Part shown: positions 3,691 to 10,742 of the stretch, piece by piece
Layout of the letters: every line of letters begins with the position of its first letter
Numbering within the stretch: the stretch's first letter is position 1
DNA from: Candidatus Kapaibacterium sp.
GTDB lineage: Bacteria; Bacteroidota; Ignavibacteria; Kapaibacteriales; UBA2268
Assembly: GCA_035445085.1 (NCBI GenBank)
Contig: DAOMQA010000003.1
Coordinates: 44,368 to 108,367 of the forward strand
Direction: 5' to 3'
Length of the DNA: 64,000 nt
Made by a program: the position numbers and the translations under genes
Notes under the pieces: generated by a model
The model's input: the letters and a program-made list of their open reading frames with translations, nothing else
Databases searched by the model: none
Told to the model about the DNA's origin: nothing

Positions 3691-4404
3691 ATGGATTTTT
3701 TTATTTGGACTGGCTTTACCTTAGGAATCTTTGGTAGTTTGCATTGTTTGGGTATGTGTGGACCATTGGTATTAGCTATACCAATTATAAGTAAAACAAA
3801 GTTTGGAATTGCACTCGATGGCATAATTTATAATTTGGGGCGTACACTTACTTATACATTTATGGGCTTTTTATTAGGAGTGTTGGGTGTTTCAGTAAAA
3901 TTTGCTGGCATACAAGATTATGTTTCTATTACCTTAGGTGTTTTATTATTGCTTTCCTTGGTTGTGCCACGTAAGTATTATAAATCATTGGATAGTAAAA
4001 AAAGTATCAATAAAATTGTCATTAATATTAAAAAGCAATTCAAATCATTAATAGAAACGAGAAGCAGATTTTCTTTGCTTTTTATTGGTGTCTTAAATGG
4101 ATTTTTGCCTTGTGGACTGGTGTACGCTGCCTTAGCTGGCTCATTAGCTATGAATGACCTAGCGAGTAGCTCTTTATATATGTTTGCCTTTGGGTTAGGT
4201 ACTATACCAATGCTTGCTACTGTATATTTTACTAAAAACCTATTTACTCCTAAGTTGCGTGCTAATCTAAATAAGCTTATTCCATATACGATAGCAGTAG
4301 TTGCCGTGATATTAATCCTTAGAGGATTAAACTTAGGTATACCTTATATTAGTCCCACGCCTCAAAGTCTTGAGATAACAAATAGCGGTGCTTGTTGCCA
4401 CTAA
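3691..4404 (+). CDS. DsbD_2 / TauE-SafE-like membrane protein of the cbb3 maturation cluster
   Basis: GSLHCLGMCGPLV, YNLGR, GFLPCGLVY motifs; C-terminal CCH. Confidence 0.88.
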   Translation: MDFFIWTGFTLGIFGSLHCLGMCGPLVLAIPIISKTKFGIALDGIIYNLGRTLTYTFMGFLLGVLGVSVKFAGIQDYVSITLGVLLLLSLVVPRKYYKSLDSKKSINKIVINIKKQFKSLIETRSRFSLLFIGVLNGFLPCGLVYAALAGSLAMNDLASSSLYMFAFGLGTIPMLATVYFTKNLFTPKLRANLNKLIPYTIAVVAVILILRGLNLGIPYISPTPQSLEITNSGACCH

Positions 4405-4532
4405 CGGTTTGCGGCTTTGCGCTCGGACGGGCAATCGAAGCACTAAAGTTGAATTTAGTACAACCGCTGAATATAGCACAAATGTTGAATTTTGTACTTC
4501 TCCCCAGCTCTTGCAAAACCGCTTGTTATGCC
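4397..4532 (-). repeat. attC-like site (136 bp) after the DUF262 cassette
   Basis: Minus strand GGCATAAC...GTTAGTGGC; imperfect hairpin arms gcggctttgcg/tgcaaaaccgc and gaagcac/gtacttc. Confidence 0.8.
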
Positions 4533-4546
4533 TTCGCCCTTCTTTT

Positions 4547-6615
4547 CTAGTCAGTATATTTGATTGATAATTCGTCTTCAAATCCAAAAATTGTCAAGGC
4601 TTGTTTTATTCTGTCAAACTTGCCCATATTGTCAAGATTTGCTTCTATAAAATATGTATCACTTATCGGAACTGCTTGTCTTAGTCCACTTGTTTCAGGT
4701 GTTTTAGTCAAACTTAATCTGTCGCCAATTTCTGATGTAAAAAAAGTTTCTGGTTGTAAGTCGAATAGTTGCTTAAATACTTCAATGTAAAGTTTTGCTA
4801 CTTGTGTAACTTCAAGTTTTTGATTGAAGAAAATCGCATATTCTAATTTTTTGTGTTTGGGGTCTTCTGCATCAAAAATACTTATTTCGTCATTAGTCGC
4901 TTCAAGCTCAATATTTATTTCTGGAATTCCCCAAATTTTTATAAAGCGTTCTGAAATTGTGTTTGCTCTCATTTCAATTTCAGACTTATTCCACTTCGTT
5001 TTTTCTTTTAAATCTCTATTTAGCCAAAGTCTGCTGAAAATGTATCCTTGTTCTTTACCGTCCACGTTCATTACTTTCTTGTCAAGAAATGGCTTGTTAC
5101 TTAATTTGCCGTTGTTGCCTGAAAGAGTAAGATTTCCGATTGTGTTTAGATAGTTTTCTTTTATCAAATTGTATTCGTCTGCACCTAATTCAATTTTCCA
5201 TTTTGGGTCAGGGTTTTGCGGAAAAATATGTTCAATAGTTATATTGGAATTTCCTTCAATTGCTACTGGTTCATTGTTTTGAAAGTTTTCAAGTCGTTCT
5301 AATAAGTAAGTTCGGTTTTTAGGTTTAATGTTGTAAACATCTTTTTCTTTTAGTGCGTTTATCGTTTCTGTGTTTCTTGGGAAACGTTGAACACCAGACC
5401 TTTGAAGTAAAGATTTTTGAATTGAAAACAAATAATTGTTTGGCTCAACTTTATCATATAAGCCCATAAATATTTTATTAAGTGCATTGGTAGGCAAGCC
5501 TAAAATAAAACGTCTGAATATGAATGATTGAACTGTCGATAAAACTGAAATAAAAGTTGCTTTATCAATTATGTTATTTGAAAAATCTTCATAAACTTTC
5601 ATTAAGAATGGAAACGCAACATTTATTTCTAACCTGTTGATGTATTCAAGTTGAGTTCGTATTAGCTTATCAGGTTCATTTTTTGGGTTAGTCAGTTTGT
5701 TGTAATACTTAACTAATGATTGTAATTCTGCTAGGACAAGCTCTAATTCGTTAATAGTTGAAGTCGGATATTTTTCTTTGAATTTTGTATAAACGTCTCC
5801 TTTATTTGGAATTTCTTTGTTTTTAAGTGTCAAATAATCCCGGATAAACTCAGAAACACGAGTTTTATTTAATGTCTCATCCTTAGCATTTTTCTCGATT
5901 ACTTCCCAATAGTTTTTGTAAATTTTGTCTTGATTGATTCTTGAAAGTCCCATCAAAATATAATTTCTAATAAGATCAGCTTGTGATAATTCAAGTCCTG
6001 TCGAATTCAAACTTTCAAAAATTCTTTGTGGATTGTCTCTTTGTCTATCAAGAGCAATATCAACAAAAATTAGCTTTGAAAGTCCACGCTGAACAACTTC
6101 AAAGTTCTCCGCATTAATTGCTGACCTGAAATAAACAAAATTCTCAATAATTTTTGAGTAGCCTCTAAATTCTTCTCCGTCTGTTGAATTTAGAATGTGT
6201 CGAAGTGCTTCTTTATTATTTTCTGTTGGTTTTAACTTTAACTTTTCTTCTCCGGGTGCAAATTCATTTATCAAATAAGTTTTCTGAATTCGGTTGGCCA
6301 CATTTGGTTGTCAAGTTCCTTCGCAAGGCGGTAAAGTGCAATGTAAATTAAGGTAATTGTTGTAAGCCTTTGCTGTCCATCAATGATGGTTAATTCAGTC
6401 AAACCCGAAGCCGTGTAAACGTCATCGTGAACATAAACTATACTTCCAATAAAGTGAGCATTTGTCTTGTCGTTCTTTCCCGTTTCAATTATGTCGTGAA
6501 GTAATTGTTTACATTGAAACAATGTCCAATCGTAATTTCTCTGATAAACAGGAATGGCAAATGTCGTTTCATTTGTTGCTAAAAATTTATCTACTTTGGT
6601 TTCGTTCGCTTTCAT
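4547..6615 (-). pseudogene. GmrSD-like DUF262 + DUF1524 (HNH) putative type IV restriction protein, split by a 1-bp frameshift near 6300
   Basis: ORF 6615-6271 has IPVYQRNYDW and IIDGQQRLTT. ORF 6301-4547 has FESLNSTGLELSQADLIRN, TIEHIFPQ and IGNLTLSGNNGKLSN. Adding one T (ATG TTG GCC) joins them into about 689 aa. Confidence 0.85.
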
Positions 6616-6648
6616 ATTTTATTTCTGCCTGTCAGTTTGTTTACGGTT

Positions 6649-6898
6649 GCCACTAGCTTACAAATATACGAACATTCGTATATAAATACTAATACAACAA
6701 TTAATATTATTTCTAATATACGAAAAAAATTAGTATTTTCCGATAACTAATAATTCCTTTCTAATTTAATTATAAAACAACTTTCTATTTAGGTACGCTT
6801 TCAATGGCTGAAAGTTGCGACTTGCGAGGGTGGGTGGTGGAGTACAAAAGTTTAATTTAGCACTTCAGCCCCCATTTTGCCAAACCCTTGTTAGTGGC
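6649..6898 (-). repeat. Composite att site, copy 1 (250 bp): attC-like arm + AT-rich palindromic module
   Basis: Direct repeat of 7511-7758; minus-strand ends GCCACTAAC ... GCTAGTGGC. Confidence 0.85.
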
Positions 6899-7490
6899 TG
6901 CCTTTCTTTGCATCTGTAAGTTTCAAATATTCGTTTCCTCGTCTCTCTATCAAGTTTTCTAAACTTTCAAAATAGTTCAGTCCTGCAAGTCCTGTCCCGT
7001 ATGGTGCAACTGTTATTTCACTAATCAAATATCCATTGTCTAATAGGAGAAGTCCTTTATCGGTATCGTCTGCATACCAAATAAAGTCAACTATTTTTCT
7101 GTTCTTAATATGTTTTAGTTTGTTTTCCCTGTAGTCAACTTTATATGGTTGATAATCCTTGATTACGATGTCTTGTCCAAATAAAAATTTACGAAGTCTG
7201 TTAAATATATTCTGTCTTTGTCGTTGGTAACTATCGGCAATTTCTCCGACTGTTTTGTTGTTCTTGTTGACGTAATAAATGGGATAGTCCGATAAGTCAG
7301 CGAAAAGGCTTACAGCTTCTTTGTTTAACTCCTTTAACCAAATGTCGTCATTATGACAAAGTGGAATGTCAATAATATATTTGTTGTCAAGTTCTATAAA
7401 ACACTCACAAGTGTCTAAGCCGCCAACCTCCATTTTTAACAATGAATAAATGTTTGTAACAGTTTTACCTATAATTTCTCCTGTCTGCAT
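6891..7490 (-). CDS. Hypothetical cassette protein (199 aa)
   Basis: ATG 29 bp after the GTTAGTGGC core; stop codon lies inside the GCCACTAAC box; no motif recognised. Confidence 0.8.
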   Translation of the reverse strand: MQTGEIIGKTVTNIYSLLKMEVGGLDTCECFIELDNKYIIDIPLCHNDDIWLKELNKEAVSLFADLSDYPIYYVNKNNKTVGEIADSYQRQRQNIFNRLRKFLFGQDIVIKDYQPYKVDYRENKLKHIKNRKIVDFIWYADDTDKGLLLLDNGYLISEITVAPYGTGLAGLNYFESLENLIERRGNEYLKLTDAKKGSH

Positions 7491-7510
7491 CTCGGGTGTT
7501 GGTTAAGGTT

Positions 7511-7758
7511 GCCACTAACTTATAAATATACGAACATTCGTATATAAATACTAATTCAACAATTAATATTATTTCTAATATACGAAAAAAATTAATATTT
7601 TCCGATAACTAATAATCCCTTCCTAATTTAATTATAAAACAACTTTCTATTTAGGTACGCTTTCAATGGCTGAAAGTACTACTTGCAGGTGGGTGGGGGG
7701 AGTACAAAAGTTCAATTTAGCACTTCAGCCCCCATTTTGCCAAACCCTTGTTGTGTGC
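7511..7758 (-). repeat. Composite att site, copy 2 (248 bp)
   Basis: Direct repeat of 6649-6898; minus-strand ends GCACACAAC ... GTTAGTGGC. Confidence 0.85.
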
Positions 7759-7767
7759 AGTGCTTTT

Positions 7768-8622
7768 TTAGCCATATTTTTCTGCTGGTTCAAATAATGT
7801 CAATTGTTGTTGTTCTGGTAATGCTTCAAGATAGTTTGAAATAAAAAGCTCTTTCCCTTTTTGGTCTGCACTTGCTGTTACATTTCGCATTCCATACATC
7901 AATTCCCAAGGTATAATATTTGCAAATGAAAACAACTCTCTAATGTATTCGCTGTCGTCATAAGTAATGAGCCATTTATGCTTGCAGGTCTTCATATTGT
8001 CGGCAAACTTAACGTGGTCAAATGATTTGTGCATATTGCCATTCTTTCCATATAGTGCCGATTTTGTTGCTGAATAATAAGGTGGGTCAAGAAAAATAAA
8101 AACATTTTCTCCGTCCTTTTTCAATAATTCTTCATAATCAAGGTTTGTGATAGTTGAACCATTTATAACTTTTGCAAATTGGTTAAGTCGTTGAATACTA
8201 CTTTCTGTAAAGCGTCCTATAAAAGCACCTTCACTAAAACCACCACTCAAACTTGTTCCTGAAAATGTTATTCGGTTATATATAAAAAATGCTGCACCTC
8301 TTTCTAAATCGTTGAATGAAGCCAAATTTTCATTTAGAAATTTATGTAATTCTTTCCCTACTGGAAATTGGTTACGCCATTCATAAATTTTGTCAATAAG
8401 AGCATCTACATCTTTTTGGGCCATCTCCCAAAACTTGTAGAGTTCAAAATAAAGGTCGTTAATCCAAAAAGTTTTATTTGGAAAGCGTTGTTTTGCATAA
8501 ATGAAAATTGAACCACCGCCTAAAAATGGTTCTCTAAATTCGTCAAATTCAGGAATAATTGTAGATATTAAATCTACCGACCTGCTTTTTCCACCTGGGT
8601 ATCTTAACGGACTTTTTATCAT
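7768..8622 (-). CDS. Dam/D12-class N6-adenine DNA methyltransferase
   Basis: KSPLRYPGGKS, EPFLGGGS (SAM binding), FLDPPY (catalytic). Confidence 0.93.
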   Translation of the reverse strand: MIKSPLRYPGGKSRSVDLISTIIPEFDEFREPFLGGGSIFIYAKQRFPNKTFWINDLYFELYKFWEMAQKDVDALIDKIYEWRNQFPVGKELHKFLNENLASFNDLERGAAFFIYNRITFSGTSLSGGFSEGAFIGRFTESSIQRLNQFAKVINGSTITNLDYEELLKKDGENVFIFLDPPYYSATKSALYGKNGNMHKSFDHVKFADNMKTCKHKWLITYDDSEYIRELFSFANIIPWELMYGMRNVTASADQKGKELFISNYLEALPEQQQLTLFEPAEKYG

Positions 8623-9710
8623 TTTGAATATTGTATTTGAATGATAAAATTATTTTGTTTAGCTTCAGCAAAAATGGTTTCTACTAATTTGATTTGTTGT
8701 GTTGAAAAACTATTTTCGGTAAAAAAGTTTGCAATATCTTTTTTTGTACTTGTAGAAGTTATTGCACCTTTTAATTTTGAAGAGGTTAAGTTTAGCACTG
8801 CTTCACTTTTTATTTTATTTCCATTAGCAGTAACTTCCGAAAGGTTGCAATACAAAATCAATTTCAAAAGCCCGTCTTTTATGTCGCCTTTGCTTGGCAG
8901 TAAAGCATTTTTACTGTGCTTTCCTTCTATTAAATTTACTTTGTTTGGTGTGATTTTTATTTCATCAACTGTCAAAAAATATTGCCCACCTAAATAATTG
9001 GTAATTGTAACTTTTGCTTTTGAAAGTGTAGATAAACTTTCTTTTGGTTGTTGTGTAACAAACTCTCTTGATTGTGCTTTTTGTGCTTTCTCTCTTGAAA
9101 AAGCCATAAAAAATGAAACATCTTTGCCAATTTTTTCTTTGAAGTTGTCTAACCCACTTGGATTGTGTAGTTTAACTTTTGTAGTTAATTCAATGTTGCC
9201 ATAAGAGGTTTTGACTTTATCAATAATCTTATGCAGATTTGTATTTAATTCATTCAAATTCCAATGTAAAGCCGAACTATGATATTGTTCTATTTCCTTT
9301 ATTTTGGATAATATGTATTTATTGTTAAACTCTTGATTGGTTATTTTTTCGTCCGCATTTTCTGCTTTGTCGTAATATGCAAAAATTACAAAAACATCTA
9401 ATAAAGACATTAATGAAACAGTATCCCATTGTATAAAATCTCTATCGCCTTTTGCTCCTTCGTCTTTTACAACTGGAATAACAGTAATTTTCTTTGAAAT
9501 GTGTAGAGTATTATACACTCTTTCAAAAGGATAAGAACGTGTTCTTTTTGGCGAAACCCATTTGGAAATTGCAAATGTATGTTTGTTGCTTGTTAGCAAA
9601 CAAGCCGAAGGCATTTCGTTAATATCAAAGTTTTTGATTTTAACTTCTTTCAAGTCCTCTGTGAAAAGTACTTGATATTTTATGCCTGTTATTTTGCCAA
9701 CTATGTCCAT
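8619..9710 (-). CDS. Putative type II restriction endonuclease, partner of the MTase
   Basis: ATGA overlap with the MTase; PD-(D/E)xK-like TVDEI...LIEGKH; specificity unknown. Confidence 0.65.
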   Translation of the reverse strand: MDIVGKITGIKYQVLFTEDLKEVKIKNFDINEMPSACLLTSNKHTFAISKWVSPKRTRSYPFERVYNTLHISKKITVIPVVKDEGAKGDRDFIQWDTVSLMSLLDVFVIFAYYDKAENADEKITNQEFNNKYILSKIKEIEQYHSSALHWNLNELNTNLHKIIDKVKTSYGNIELTTKVKLHNPSGLDNFKEKIGKDVSFFMAFSREKAQKAQSREFVTQQPKESLSTLSKAKVTITNYLGGQYFLTVDEIKITPNKVNLIEGKHSKNALLPSKGDIKDGLLKLILYCNLSEVTANGNKIKSEAVLNLTSSKLKGAITSTSTKKDIANFFTENSFSTQQIKLVETIFAEAKQNNFIIQIQYSK

Positions 9711-9784
9711 TCGATACGAAATATTAAATTTTGGTCAAAGCTACAAATTTATAGTTTGATTTTTTGCAGGTGTCTTTTAAGCTT

Positions 9785-9882
9785 GCACACAACGAGCCGC
9801 GTATTGCCGAAGGCGGGATTTTTAGCACTGAACTTGATACGAAGTCGTTCAGCCCGCCTATTGCCAATACGATGTTGTGTGC
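9785..9882 (-). repeat. attC-like site (98 bp)
   Basis: Perfect 9-bp terminal inverted repeat gcacacaac/gttgtgtgc; inner arms gtattgccgaaggcggg / cccgcctattgccaatac with mismatched or extrahelical bases. Confidence 0.88.
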
Positions 9883-9898
9883 TGTGCTTTCTATGTTG

Positions 9899-10618: not shown

Positions 10619-10742
10619 GAACTCTGTTAATAAGTTTTAATAATAATTGGTATATTTTATTTATATTGCCTTTTATAAATGTAGTATCAATTATTATTAT
10701 TTATATAGAATATTGTAATTTTTAATTAAAAGTAGGTTAAAT

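Follow-up and report, generated by a model that had tools for sequence, protein, structure and literature searches.

Two modules of about 250 bp each, M1 and M2, inside a defence-gene cassette array (positions 4394-9890) are likely hybrid attC-attI sites in an integron-like system specific to Bacteroidota, their function being inferred from sequence. The window, meaning the whole 64-kb stretch of DNA that was analysed, holds both copies, and they are ~95% identical. Each joins one half of a cassette-bordering attC hairpin to the core of an attI-type entry site, and both halves belong to their respective families. The features of the array are collected in Table 1.

Table 1. Features of the cassette array, in the order in which the minus strand is read.
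Feature	Position	Strand	Description or role	Basis
Site A	9785-9890	-	Complete attC hairpin of a second type (GCACACAAC...GTTGTGTGC); 5' boundary of R-M cassette	
Cassette 1 (R-M)	7519-9792	-	Type II restriction enzyme (363 aa) and Dam-like methyltransferase (284 aa); 3' site is M2	Pfam, PADLOC; box complementarity for the 3' site
Module M2	7508-7765	-	Hybrid attC-attI site (likely); 3' boundary of R-M cassette, 5' boundary of 199-aa cassette	Repeat family, nhmmer, attI PWM
M2 extended R'' box	7750-7765	-	AAGCACTGCACACAAC	Complementary to R-M cassette start GTTGTGTGCAAGCTT at 9793-9779
M2 attC left arm and one loop repeat	7703-7749	-	AAGGGTTTGGCAAAATGGGGGCTGAAGTGCTAAATTGAACTTTTGTACT	23-mer, HMM match
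M2 variable C-rich patch	7678-7702	-	Degenerate attC right arm	Canonical-site comparison, M1/M2 alignment
M2 AT-rich spacer	7533-7677	-	Small hairpin (CTTTCAGCCATTGAAAG); direct CGTATAT 7578-7584; inverted ATATACG 7539-7545	
M2 attI-type core	7508-7532	-	CGTATATTTATAAG|TTAGTGGCAAC	Pattern, PWM, cassette-start rule
M2 equivalent of palindrome	7526-7545			
Cassette 2	6657-7518	-	199-aa protein of unknown function; 3' site is M1	
Module M1	6646-6904	-	Hybrid attC-attI site (likely); 3' boundary of 199-aa cassette, upstream of GmrSD gene	Repeat family, nhmmer, attI PWM
M1 extended R'' box	6890-6904	-	AAGGCAGCCACTAAC	Fits 199-aa cassette start
M1 attC left arm and one loop repeat	6843-6889	-	One position different from M2	
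M1 variable C-rich patch	6816-6842	-	Degenerate right-arm remnant	Canonical-site comparison, M1/M2 alignment
M1 AT-rich spacer	6671-6815	-	Direct box 6716-6722; inverted box 6677-6683	
M1 attI-type core	6646-6670	-	CGTATATTTGTAAG|CTAGTGGCAAC	Pattern, PWM
Perfect 9+2+9 palindrome	6664-6683		ATATACGAA-CA-TTCGTATAT; L box and its inverted copy	
GmrSD-type gene	4405-6656	-	Type IV restriction, frameshift-split, followed by site D	Pfam, PADLOC
Site D	4394-4538	-	Complete canonical-family attC	nhmmer positions 6-135, E = 5e-19

The first ~62 nt of each module match an attC-like hairpin site of ~100-140 nt. Against a 136-position attC model, nhmmer places M2 at model positions 2-64 (7759-7697) and M1 at positions 3-62 (6898-6839); neither gives the full-length match to the Bacteroidota attC profile (~2-136), unlike site D, which is the only other att site in the window of the same sequence family as the left halves of the modules. 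Both modules lie 3' of an ORF, on its strand, and carry an R'' box that fits the start of their own cassette, and stand where a cassette's attC should be. The reverse complement of the M2 R'' box (GTTGTGTGCAGTGCTT) corresponds to the start of the R-M cassette (GTTGTGTGCAAGCTT) with an internal mismatch of 1-2 nt, and that of M1 (GTTAGTGGCTGCCT) agrees with the start of the 199-aa cassette (GTTAGTGGCAACCT) at 12/14 positions, the exception being the family-typical AA/TG mismatch at positions 10-11. Beyond the left arm, the C-rich patches CCCCCCACCCACCTGCAAG and CCACCACCCACCCTCGCAAG are a degenerate remnant of the canonical right arm CCCCCACTTCGCCAAG, and the terminal CCCCAAACC that closes the hairpin beside the R' box in canonical sites is absent from both modules, leaving 13 nt of attC gone rather than displaced. 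The only arm pairing to survive is the inner GGGGG/CCCCC, and shuffled sequences fold about as well as the modules (z = -0.76 and -1.39), so neither qualifies as a hairpin. The R''-AAC end is present, and the GTT/GCT box is found only ~240 nt off, within the attI core.

The last 24-34 nt of the modules match strongly to the attI-type core tTgCGTATATTTa.gAG|TTAGyGGCAA (the bar marks the predicted crossover). A position weight matrix (PWM) for this core scores M2 at 42.3 bits (7538-7505) and M1 at 36.2 bits (6676-6643), both within the training range of 30.7-52.1 bits, and finds nothing that reaches 14 bits in 1.79 Mb of unrelated control loci. Both modules thus have the conserved core, M1 with a GCT variant in place of the GTT triplet, and the right end of the module is a bona fide member of the attI-type core family; that it is bound and recombined is inferred from its sequence. 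In M2 the crossover is predicted to fall between 7519 and 7518, the -7-like promoter box is TATATTTA (7523-7530) and the 199-aa ORF begins 18 nt past GGCAA; in M1 the -7 box TATATTTG lies at 6661-6668 and the N-terminal ORF of GmrSD begins 31 nt past GGCAA. The -33 region is not conserved across the family, and the promoter is a consensus match only. A palindrome analogous to that of the modules (ATACGCA-GT-TGCGTAT) occurs at another locus, L022.

Where does the next cassette begin? Past attI cores in this family, the first R'' box fits the R box plus three cassette-specific nucleotides, with a constant AA/TG mismatch, and the pair formed by the M2 core and the M1 R'' box follows this rule exactly. 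Since the gene that separates the two modules (199 aa) conforms to the cassette rule of the family in this way, the G|TT of the M2 core is a true cassette boundary (12/14 positions, with the family-typical mismatch). The M1 core fails the same test (2/11), and neither core is at the head of an array or adjoins a recombinase gene, both being mid-array in a window without such a gene.

The GmrSD unit breaks the cassette rule. Since its start does not fit its own R'' box, I class it as an irregular cassette; its frameshift recurs in other assemblies (L036/L058 and L059). At its far end, the R' box of site D (GTTAGTGGCAAC) overlaps the stop codon of a DsbD_2 gene; orthologous DsbD_2 loci from 44 other species are at most 46% identical and show no arrays and no empty site. 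Site A folds at -26.9 kcal/mol (z = -5.2). No record of the exact 199-aa protein exists in the assembly index.

Between the two halves lies an AT-rich spacer of ~145 nt, a length within the 137-187 nt that separate recombinase gene and attI in five complete elements from related loci. One of these spacers, from locus L152, gives a weak collinear alignment (63.5% over 170 nt, E = 3e-5). I was unable to find a clear homologue of the spacer outside the species: blastn against all fetched loci returned only the core and weak AT-rich similarity, and an exact 24-mer from the palindrome region had 0 matches in GTDB species representatives. The origin of the spacer from an attI region thus rests on position, length and short boxes. 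Two other matches were set aside: a 19-mer from the spacer hairpin had seven hits in JGI metagenomes, all unrelated chance ones, and a 37-nt similarity (E = 0.009) with 10692-10725, the ACIII promoter region, is taken to be a chance likeness between AT-rich sequences. No match was found in a phage collection, and no further copy of the module elsewhere in the window or in public collections.

The two copies align without gaps over 6637-6815 and 7499-7677 (96% identity), and over 6827-6892 and 7687-7752 they are 91% identical, at a spacing of 860-862 nt. A MAFFT alignment resolves the differences into 6-7 isolated substitutions, one indel-rich patch of ~27 nt (6816-6842 / 7678-7702) and differing terminal boxes. 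Within the window the 24-mer AACAAGGGTTTGGCAAAATGGGGG and the palindrome TATACGAACATTCGTATA each occur only at M1 and M2, 0 being expected by chance. A contig from another run (L059, SRR13356409) carries M1 and the GmrSD gene at 100% identity, and in independent Logan assemblies (L036 and L057) the contigs break at or within the modules.

The initial annotation, made from the letters of this stretch alone, described two composite junctions, each half an attC-like hairpin joined to an AT-rich attI-like module, and as a whole it is confirmed and essentially right, both halves having been tested and upheld. Its ~7 substitutions, variable patch and differing terminal boxes are borne out, as is its AT-rich lead of ~150 bp to the core, here put at ~145 nt. 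Its statement that each end box matches the start of its own cassette is also correct, and the match reaches further than was then seen. The statement that there is no complementary second arm holds in part: a decayed remnant persists, and it is the hairpin-closing end that is gone. That the modules begin like the other att sites is true of site D only, as site A is a different attC type.

The attC half has a wide distribution. Its 23-nt left arm is found exactly in 35 loci, nearly all Bacteroidota and always within a full hairpin site. Canonical attC arrays hold up to 6 sites per 8 kb, and one array exceeds 30 kb. The consensus stem of canonical sites has 14 pairs (97.9% paired; fold z = -1.5 to -3.8), the left and right arms co-vary within arrays, and R'' is complementary to the start of its own cassette. 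The attI-type core was found in at least 85 Bacteroidota species (85 loci), typically once per locus. It is followed by a same-strand ORF in 74/78 loci (median 41 nt downstream), opens arrays in L022 and L002, and has inverted boxes enriched at -11 to -35 across the family. A second, independent and shorter hybrid site lies mid-array in L169, the only other mid-array core among the 85 loci, with an R'' complementary to 13/14 positions at the start of the cassette it belongs to.

Clustering of ORFs around attI cores brought out a conserved Xer/IntI-like recombinase, which in 8 loci lies 92-187 nt from the core; clustering around attC sites gave no recurrent recombinase. One locus (L160) is a complete element, with recombinase, attI core and canonical attCs downstream. 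As the window has no recombinase gene, proteins from related loci were compared with TIGR02249 and IntI4. Their best NCBIfam match is the integron integrase TIGR02249, at 183-203 bits against a cut-off of 265, and the match falls into two stretches that skip profile positions ~180-240; the match to IntI4 from the PDB is likewise split in two. The family recombinases thus fail the requirement of an IntI-specific additional domain that defines a classical integron in the sense of IntegronFinder, and they carry an extra N-terminal domain of ~85 aa. A tblastn search of the 64-kb window with an IntI1 query found no recombinase gene, and 56/64 assessable attI cores have none within 2 kb; action in trans is assumed for these reasons. 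The IntI1 query did match in L006 and L008, but these are tyrosine recombinases that accompany IS91-family transposases inserted at attC sites, not the array recombinase. A scan of viral contigs for the attC 23-mer found nothing, nor did Rfam at gathering thresholds in the window or in 16 related loci.

In the reading I prefer, the system has a tyrosine recombinase of the Xer/IntI-like kind (~360 aa), an entry site that is double-stranded and conserved, with the attI-type core given above, and conserved attC-type hairpin sites of ~100-140 nt. Each hybrid module runs from R'' box, left arm and one loop repeat through a decayed right arm and a ~145-nt spacer to a complete attI-type core, together with its accessory boxes, inverted and direct. 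It would no longer be able to act as a folded hairpin and would recombine with attC sites in attI (double-strand) mode, so that the cassette upstream would bear an attI for its site; placed in an array, this cassette would let further cassettes enter internally. The core's TAnnTTTG-like -7 box would be a promoter, with transcripts starting at the cassette boundary, and the hybrid promoters would drive the 199-aa and GmrSD genes. It is likely, again by inference, that the array has extra internal entry points and probably promoters too. The M1 core, with GCT for GTT, may be inactive. No recombination has been observed, and every function is inferred.

Since M1 and M2 have derived characters in common, I trace them to one ancestral fusion. 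An exchange inside the conserved left arm, with site-specific steps after it, would have brought the hybrid to a second cassette; the extra step of homologous exchange is invoked because a G|TT crossover cannot give both shared derived characters and different R'' boxes. Divergence is far greater in the right-arm patch than elsewhere in the module, and this explanation does not account for it.

How the fusion arose is not resolved among a deleted recombinase platform, a mobile attI module and an insertion upstream of an orphan attI. Of the two origins offered in the initial annotation, a new class of site or the scar of an integrase-bearing unit, neither could be favoured over the other: no copy turned up in which a recombinase ORF separates the halves, and ORF-less copies between varied genes are very rare, being confined to this species and the shorter hybrid in L169.

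The scar remains possible. It concerns origin only and is compatible with the account of present working given above. It supposes a divergent platform (recombinase gene, spacer and attI) downstream of the attC at an array end, and a deletion, perhaps recombinase-mediated between the attC and a secondary site, that ran from the attC right arm to the first recombinase codons and left attC-left, spacer and attI. In its favour, the distance between the spacer's conserved left edge and the core (~134-146 nt) can be equated with that from recombinase start codon to core in the five complete divergent elements, a plus-strand ATG (ATGGCTGAAAGT, 6804-6815 / 7666-7677) lies exactly where conservation between M1 and M2 stops, and the spacer is collinear with the whole recombinase-attI spacer of L152. 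However, outside the core that alignment is weak AT-rich similarity; attC lies on the far side of the recombinase gene in 0/8 recombinase-linked loci, none having been found beyond that gene in complete elements; only four codons of the supposed gene are left, and they resemble no N-terminus of the family; the modules lack the box GCGTATTTTGTAT that complete elements have near the recombinase start; and no intermediate turned up in which a recombinase separates the halves.

A mobile module is unlikely. Here a 157-nt ORF-less unit running from TTTCAGCC to the core G (6657-6813 / 7519-7675), a mini-cassette with an attI as its own recombination site, would have inserted independently at the crossovers of two different attCs, complete but degenerate, and each patch would be that cassette's own right arm. 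Because ...CGCAAGTCGCAAC|TTTCAG of M1 can be aligned with ...CGCAAAGCCGCAAACCG|TTAGTG of site D, the attC may be complete up to the C|TT junction. This view would account for the cassette-specific R'' boxes and for the clustering of differences in the right-arm patch, and a mid-array attI core is known elsewhere (L169). Against it, the left arms of M1 and M2 are 98% identical with derived characters in common, and that of site D is, by eye, only roughly 60% identical to them, so the left halves are sisters rather than independent attCs; and since arms co-vary within arrays, identical left arms predict identical right arms. Further, the junction is C|TT and not G|TT, TAGTAC of M2 aligns poorly with a right-arm end, and none of the collections yielded another copy of the 157-nt unit.

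Very unlikely is that the AT-rich half is a promoter-operator module only, duplicated in front of two defence genes, with a palindrome that binds a transcription factor and no role in recombination. The perfect 9+2+9 palindrome does overlap a TAnnTTTG-type -7 box, 30-45 nt 5' of start codons, and a same-strand ORF follows closely in the 74/78 family members noted above. However, the most conserved part of the motif, GTTAGyGGCAA, is the R box common to attC sites, cassette-specific complementarity starts exactly at the core G|TT, and the tyrosine recombinase is the only recurrent neighbour gene of the cores. Regulation and recombination do not rule each other out.

The remaining alternatives, which include the IS end and the assembly duplication that the initial annotation had named as able to refute it, are all but excluded. 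A MITE, IS end or group II intron remnant inserted into an attC would have precedent: elements that target attC sites exist (IS1111-attC elements and group IIC-attC introns), and attC sites in L006, L008 and L002 are occupied by IS91-like elements that have a tyrosine recombinase. Yet no terminal inverted repeats, target-site duplication or dispersed copies were found, attC sequence is lost and not merely pushed aside, there is neither an Rfam match nor a transposase gene, and the right end is the family attI core. An assembly artefact or plain tandem duplication is suggested only by the regular spacing of the copies; they are ~4-5% apart, are flanked by different genes, have R'' boxes that differ and each fit their own cassette (upholding the earlier claim that simple duplication does not explain them), and are supported by independent assemblies from two sequencing runs with no sign of an assembly duplication.

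How does this system relate to known ones? Like classical integrons, including sedentary chromosomal ones with homogeneous attCs such as the Vibrio cholerae repeats, it has arrays of single- or few-gene cassettes, each followed by an imperfect hairpin with xxxxAAC...GTTxxxx boxes, an R'' that complements the opening bases of its own cassette (implying crossover at G|TT), a distinct entry site that is not a hairpin and lies beside a tyrosine recombinase matched best by the integron integrase model, and defence-gene cargo (bioRxiv 10.1101/2024.07.02.601686). Unlike them, its recombinase lacks the IntI-specific insertion, falls below the TIGR02249 cut-off and has the extra N-terminal domain; its attI and attC are sequence-conserved across orders of the phylum; and most of its attI cores are not beside a recombinase gene. 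Whereas a classical integron has one attI at the array head, here an attI core is fused to a truncated attC mid-array, twice. CALINs, as annotated by IntegronFinder (PMC9024848), similarly have attC-type sites with no recombinase gene, none having been found within 64 kb here, but they are defined by attC sites alone and this array also has attI-type cores. The IntegronFinder 2.0 paper reports Bacteroidetes to be almost devoid of integrons (PMC9024848). IS1111-attC elements and group IIC-attC introns also place foreign DNA in or beside an attC and interrupt the hairpin. They encode a transposase or are structured introns, and both attC halves remain; the modules, by contrast, have no coding capacity or Rfam match, have lost the distal attC end, and have as their added DNA the system's own entry site.

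The closest experimental parallel comes from Riemerella anatipestifer, where a gene, aph(3')-IVb, with a 27-bp 5'UTR and a 140-bp 3'UTR was shown to integrate without flanking homology, the 3'UTR forming attC-like stem-loops (PMC13148043). The authors cite lnu(H) and blaRATA as parallels and state that the integration mechanism is not yet elucidated. The host belongs to the Flavobacteriales, the size and layout match the cassettes described here, and Riemerella anatipestifer plasmids carry relatives of the same attC left arm. However, that paper names no recombinase, attI motif or hybrid site. The system may explain acquisition of resistance genes in Riemerella, although the family of the aph(3')-IVb 3'UTR and its target remain unverified.

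A bolder reading takes all of this jointly: a widespread Bacteroidota integron-like system, appearing to be missed by standard integron searches, in which most entry sites are 'orphans', presumably served in trans, in which some cassettes have an attI for a functional attC, and which explains capture in Riemerella. As a whole I would place it slightly on the doubtful side. The initial annotation knew of no name for the architecture, and keyword and sequence-string searches of the literature turned up no account of the motifs or the system.

The conserved triad of recombinase, attI core and attC occurs in dozens of Bacteroidota species, in arrays rich in anti-phage defence genes. Classical IntI uses its insertion to recognise folded attC sites; because the recombinase of this triad lacks that insertion, how it recognises its sites can be put directly to the test. 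From the hybrid sites it is clear that a place within an array is open to an attI, which can there mark the border of a cassette, and nature supplies in them a substrate on which double-strand (attI-mode) and hairpin (attC-mode) recombination can be compared. That one attC body serves two cassettes whose R'' boxes differ is relevant to the copying or homogenisation of attC sites, which is still an open question in the field. If the bolder reading is true, the same system would be the unexplained mechanism of homology-independent resistance-gene capture in Riemerella, and an attI-bearing cassette would move by attI x attC recombination, planting an entry site and a promoter wherever it lands, so that arrays would branch and extend themselves.

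I conclude that the two ~250-bp modules M1 and M2 are real, and that each is a hybrid attC-attI site, new within an integron-like system that is apparently poorly described or undescribed. They lie in a minus-strand cassette island (4394-9890) flanked on one side by a cbb3-oxidase accessory gene of the DsbD_2 family and on the other by the alternative complex III (ACIII) operon, and share the array with two complete attC-type hairpin sites, A and D. M2 is the 3' site of the restriction-modification (R-M) cassette, M1 that of the 199-aa cassette.

Features of the cassette island and its flanks (window positions)
Feature	Position	Strand	Remark
cbb3-oxidase accessory gene, DsbD_2 family	3691-4404	+	
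Site D	4538-4394	-	final 12 nt GTTAGTGGCAAC overlap DsbD_2 stop codon
GmrSD-type gene, frameshift-split	6615-4547	-	
Module M1	6904-6646	-	
199-aa ORF, no family match	7490-6891	-	
Module M2	7765-7508	-	
Type II restriction enzyme and Dam-like methyltransferase	9710-7768	-	
Site A	9890-9785	-	
Type IIG restriction-modification remnant, internally deleted	10477-9899	-	
ACIII operon	from 10743	+	

The frameshift in the GmrSD-type gene leaves ORFs of 114 and 584 aa (6271-6615 and 4547-6301, overlapping at 6271-6301), and since the split also appears in independent assemblies of two sequencing runs (L036/L058 and L059; L-numbers denote loci from other genomes, metagenome assemblies, plasmids and viral contigs), it is either a real pseudogene or a programmed shift. 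The type IIG ORF (192 aa) joins roughly the first 50 residues of a restriction-methyltransferase to its C-terminal TaqI_C domain and is thus an internally deleted remnant; it adjoins the ACIII operon in all sampled strains, with contigs breaking right after it, in site A. The extended R'' boxes (R'' and R' being the boxes at the two ends of an attC-type site) of site A (AAAGCACAGCACACAAC, 9874-9890) and M2 (AAGCACTGCACACAAC, 7750-7765) are almost the same despite different cassettes and attC types. Other strains with an identical DsbD_2 protein (L037-L041) have an array end that differs from window 4394-4546, namely a 533-aa N6-methyltransferase/AlbA_2 cassette, half a site-A-type attC and a filler of ~230 nt that ends in CCAAACCTA|TTAATGGCAAC; that end lacks an attI core (the attI-type entry-site motif).

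The initial annotation described two ~250-bp near-copies separated by ~7 substitutions, a variable patch and their own end boxes. This held: identity between M1 and M2 is 91-96% over blocks without gaps, and what separates them is 6-7 isolated substitutions, an indel-rich patch of 27 nt and the boxes at their 5' ends. An assembly artefact is ruled out, as the copies differ, independent assemblies break at the modules, and M1 with the GmrSD gene occurs at 100% identity on a contig from a different sequencing run.

The attC-type half is widespread. Exact copies of its 23-mer AACAAGGGTTTGGCAAAATGGGG are present in 35 loci from genomes of species representatives, almost all of them Bacteroidota, including Saprospiraceae, Flavobacterium, Chryseobacterium, Pedobacter, Spirosoma, Arcicella and Bacteroidales. 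Four short contigs with canonical attC sites are binned elsewhere, as Armatimonadota (L013), Saccharibacteria (L016), a Thermococci archaeon (L018) and an unclassified bacterium (L014); because repeat arrays bin poorly, these are probably mis-binned Bacteroidota. In all 35 loci the 23-mer opens a site of ~100-140 nt composed of xxxxAAC, AAGGGTTTGGCAAAATGGGGGCAGAAGTGC, one to three repeats of ~23 nt, TAATTCCCCCACTTCGCCAAGCCCCAAACC and GTTAxxxx. In the consensus structure GGGTTTGG...GGGGGG pairs with CCCCCC...CCAAACCC (14 pairs, 97.9% of cells paired). Arrays recognised by the attC profile hold up to six sites per 8 kb, and one, on a Saprospiraceae contig, exceeds 30 kb. Within canonical arrays R'' complements the start of its own cassette at a mean of 4.6 of 8 positions, versus 2.6 of 8 for the adjacent R' tail, and at 7-8 of 8 in L012, which I read, from sequence alone, as the classical integron signature of crossover at G|TT (the bar marks the crossover). 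Site D aligns with the profile throughout (positions 6-135), M1 and M2 with positions 2-64 only. After the loop repeat the modules carry a degenerate right arm, CCCCCCACCCACCTGCAAG or CCACCACCCACCCTCGCAAG, where the canonical arm is CCCCCACTTCGCCAAG; they lack CCCCAAACC, the partner of GGGTTTGG in the canonical hairpin, and therefore fold no better than shuffled sequence. Site A folds as a textbook hairpin (z = -5.2).

The final 25 nt of the modules reappear ahead of the first cassettes of Chryseobacterium piscicola (L002) and of a Cytophagales genome (L022), the order in the latter being a housekeeping gene, ~270 nt of intergenic sequence, TTGCGTATATATCAGAG|TTAGTGGCAAT, a cassette with R'' CTGCCACTAAC and a canonical attC. 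The degenerate pattern CGTATATNTNNNAGNTAGYGGCAA, derived from the L002, L022 and module sites, found 90 loci, 85 of them in Bacteroidota and typically with one site each; the core consensus is tTgCGTATATTTa.gAG|TTAGyGGCAA. On the core PWM (85 sites, training range 30.7-52.1 bits) M2 scores 42.3 and M1 36.2 bits, and 1.79 Mb of unrelated loci contain no match of 14 bits or more. A same-strand ORF follows the core in 74 of 78 loci, at a median distance of 41 nt. The core includes a TAnnTTT(G/A) box, a motif that resembles the Bacteroidetes -7 promoter element; a promoter into the first cassette is plausible and unproven, resting on a consensus match only. Four loci (L114, L118, L121 and L140) have a common conserved sequence downstream of the core (...gttgtgtagggtagtcgcttaaagacaaaatacaaaaaca...), which might be a shared first cassette or a small RNA.

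Where an attC lies no more than ~2 kb after the core, the first R'', when reverse-complemented, reads as the R box (the right half of the core) and three bases specific to the cassette, apart from a two-base mismatch that is always present, as in GTTAGCGGCAAGCA with GTTAGCGGCTGGCA. The M2 core GTTAGTGGCAACCT and the M1 R'' GTTAGTGGCTGCCT follow this pattern, and the R-M cassette obeys the same rule relative to site A and M2. The R-M and 199-aa genes are therefore regular cassettes with a hybrid 3' site, G|TT of the M2 core marks a cassette boundary, and the pairing at M2 suggests, again from sequence alone, that its core serves as a crossover point. The M1 core has GCT in place of GTT, and the downstream GmrSD unit, which ends in site D, breaks the rule; possible reasons are an inactive M1 or a rearranged GmrSD unit. 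Of the remaining claims of the initial annotation, the half attC-like, half AT-rich attI-like architecture held on the profile and core scores, and the match of each end box to its own cassette's start held for the R-M and 199-aa cassettes by box complementarity; the absence of a complementary second arm held only in part, as a degenerate arm is kept and CCCCAAACC is missing. R'' and R' are complementary over 14 nt or more, and positions 10-11 are always mismatched (AA opposite TG), in L012, L002, L022, L112, L125, L131, L155, L158, L170, L176 and the window (7506-7519 versus 6891-6904). By analogy, this mismatch could correspond to the extrahelical bases by which classical attC sites determine the strand that recombines.

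Between patch and core lies an AT-rich spacer of ~145 nt with a small hairpin. CGTATAT occurs there twice, directly at -52 and inverted at -13, and the inverted copy forms a perfect 9+2+9 palindrome with the L box (the left half of the core); family-wide, the enrichment falls at -11 to -35 for inverted and at -41 to -55 for direct boxes. In its layout, such an arrangement recalls the accessory binding sites of attI1. Exact spacer k-mers revealed no clear homologue outside this species among species representatives and metagenomes, and the best alignment, weak outside the core, is collinear with the entire recombinase-attI spacer of L152.

The sole recurrent gene adjoining the core encodes a tyrosine recombinase of 356-364 aa (8 loci). 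It is divergent in five (L115, L137, L152, L158 and L160), where 137-187 nt separate its start codon from the core, and upstream in the same orientation in three (L121, L157 and L187), 92-146 nt away; L160, from Parapedobacter, is a complete element with recombinase and adjoining core (5429-6685) and three canonical attCs. Among NCBIfam models the recombinase fits the integron integrase TIGR02249 best, scoring under the cut-off and matching in two stretches that skip profile positions ~180-240, the location of the IntI-specific insertion. The protein carries an extra N-terminal domain of ~85 aa; among solved structures, archaeal XerA and IntI4 are nearest to it. No recombinase lies within 2 kb of 56 of the 64 cores with enough upstream sequence, so most entry sites are orphans; they follow a variety of chromosomal genes (loci within the set L002, L022 and L105-L191) and are presumably served in trans. 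A predicted viral contig (L193:10705-11964, IMG/VR IMGVR_UViG_3300032282_005588) has a core, an adjacent family recombinase, apparently without the N-terminal domain, and an attC-like site, and is possibly a mobile copy of the system.

Recombinase, core and attC family together look like a Bacteroidota-specific integron-like system, which functions similarly to classical integrons but fails their defining integrase test. Bacteroidetes are described as almost without integrons in the IntegronFinder 2.0 paper (PMC9024848), and I found no description of the attC, core or recombinase in the literature searched by keyword and sequence string. The nearest experimental report concerns Riemerella anatipestifer, where aph(3')-IVb integrates with a 27-bp 5'UTR and a 140-bp attC-like 3'UTR, without homology and by a mechanism "not yet elucidated" (PMC13148043); its sites may be the same as the Bacteroidota attC/attI, although this is unconfirmed. 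Left-arm relatives occur on plasmids of Riemerella, Empedobacter, Myroides, Chryseobacterium and Adhaeribacter. The R. anatipestifer resistance plasmid pRA0846 (L194) has family-related attC-like repeats (5229-5412 and 7320-7493) on either side of its estT/floR region. Pairs of IS91-family transposase (Y2_Tnp) and tyrosine recombinase are inserted at or beside attC sites (L006:3620-5766, L008:4947-6412, L002:3185-3766); the L006 element abuts GTTC|AAC at the R'' box, and the L002 transposase is truncated exactly at the start of the AT-rich attI region.

The best-supported reading, a likely one inferred from sequence, is a hybrid that lost its hairpin function and kept a complete attI-type site. 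M1 and M2 have derived characters in common, namely T in GGGGGCTGAAG, CTTTTGTACTCC, the truncation and the spacer, and therefore descend from one fusion. Three origins of that fusion are possible and remain unresolved. Deletion of a recombinase platform is supported by the length of the spacer, which fits, and by an ATG that looks like a relic where conservation ends; a mobile attI mini-module, or a cassette inserted upstream of an orphan attI, could also have produced it. An independent hybrid in L169, a Chitinophagaceae locus, consists of R'' TTCTGCTAAC, ACGGGTTTTGC, CTTTTGTACTC, ~20 nt and a core, with an R'' that agrees with the start of its own cassette in 13 of 14 positions; such fusions thus recur, although they are rare (one of 85 species-representative cores, plus this species). 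The L169 array has two cores, a weaker, attI-like one at its start (64-97) and a strong mid-array one fused to a short attC left-arm remnant (3797-4141); most of its ORFs run against the orientation of its attC sites.

The differing, cassette-specific R'' boxes of M1 and M2 could not be produced by G|TT crossovers. R'' may instead have been swapped by exchange inside the highly conserved left arm, for example through unequal crossing-over with a canonical attC and then an excision at specific sites; neither step is shown. On the hybrid-site reading, each module would be the upstream cassette's own recombination site, working in attI mode, and would also provide an internal entry point and promoter for downstream cassettes.
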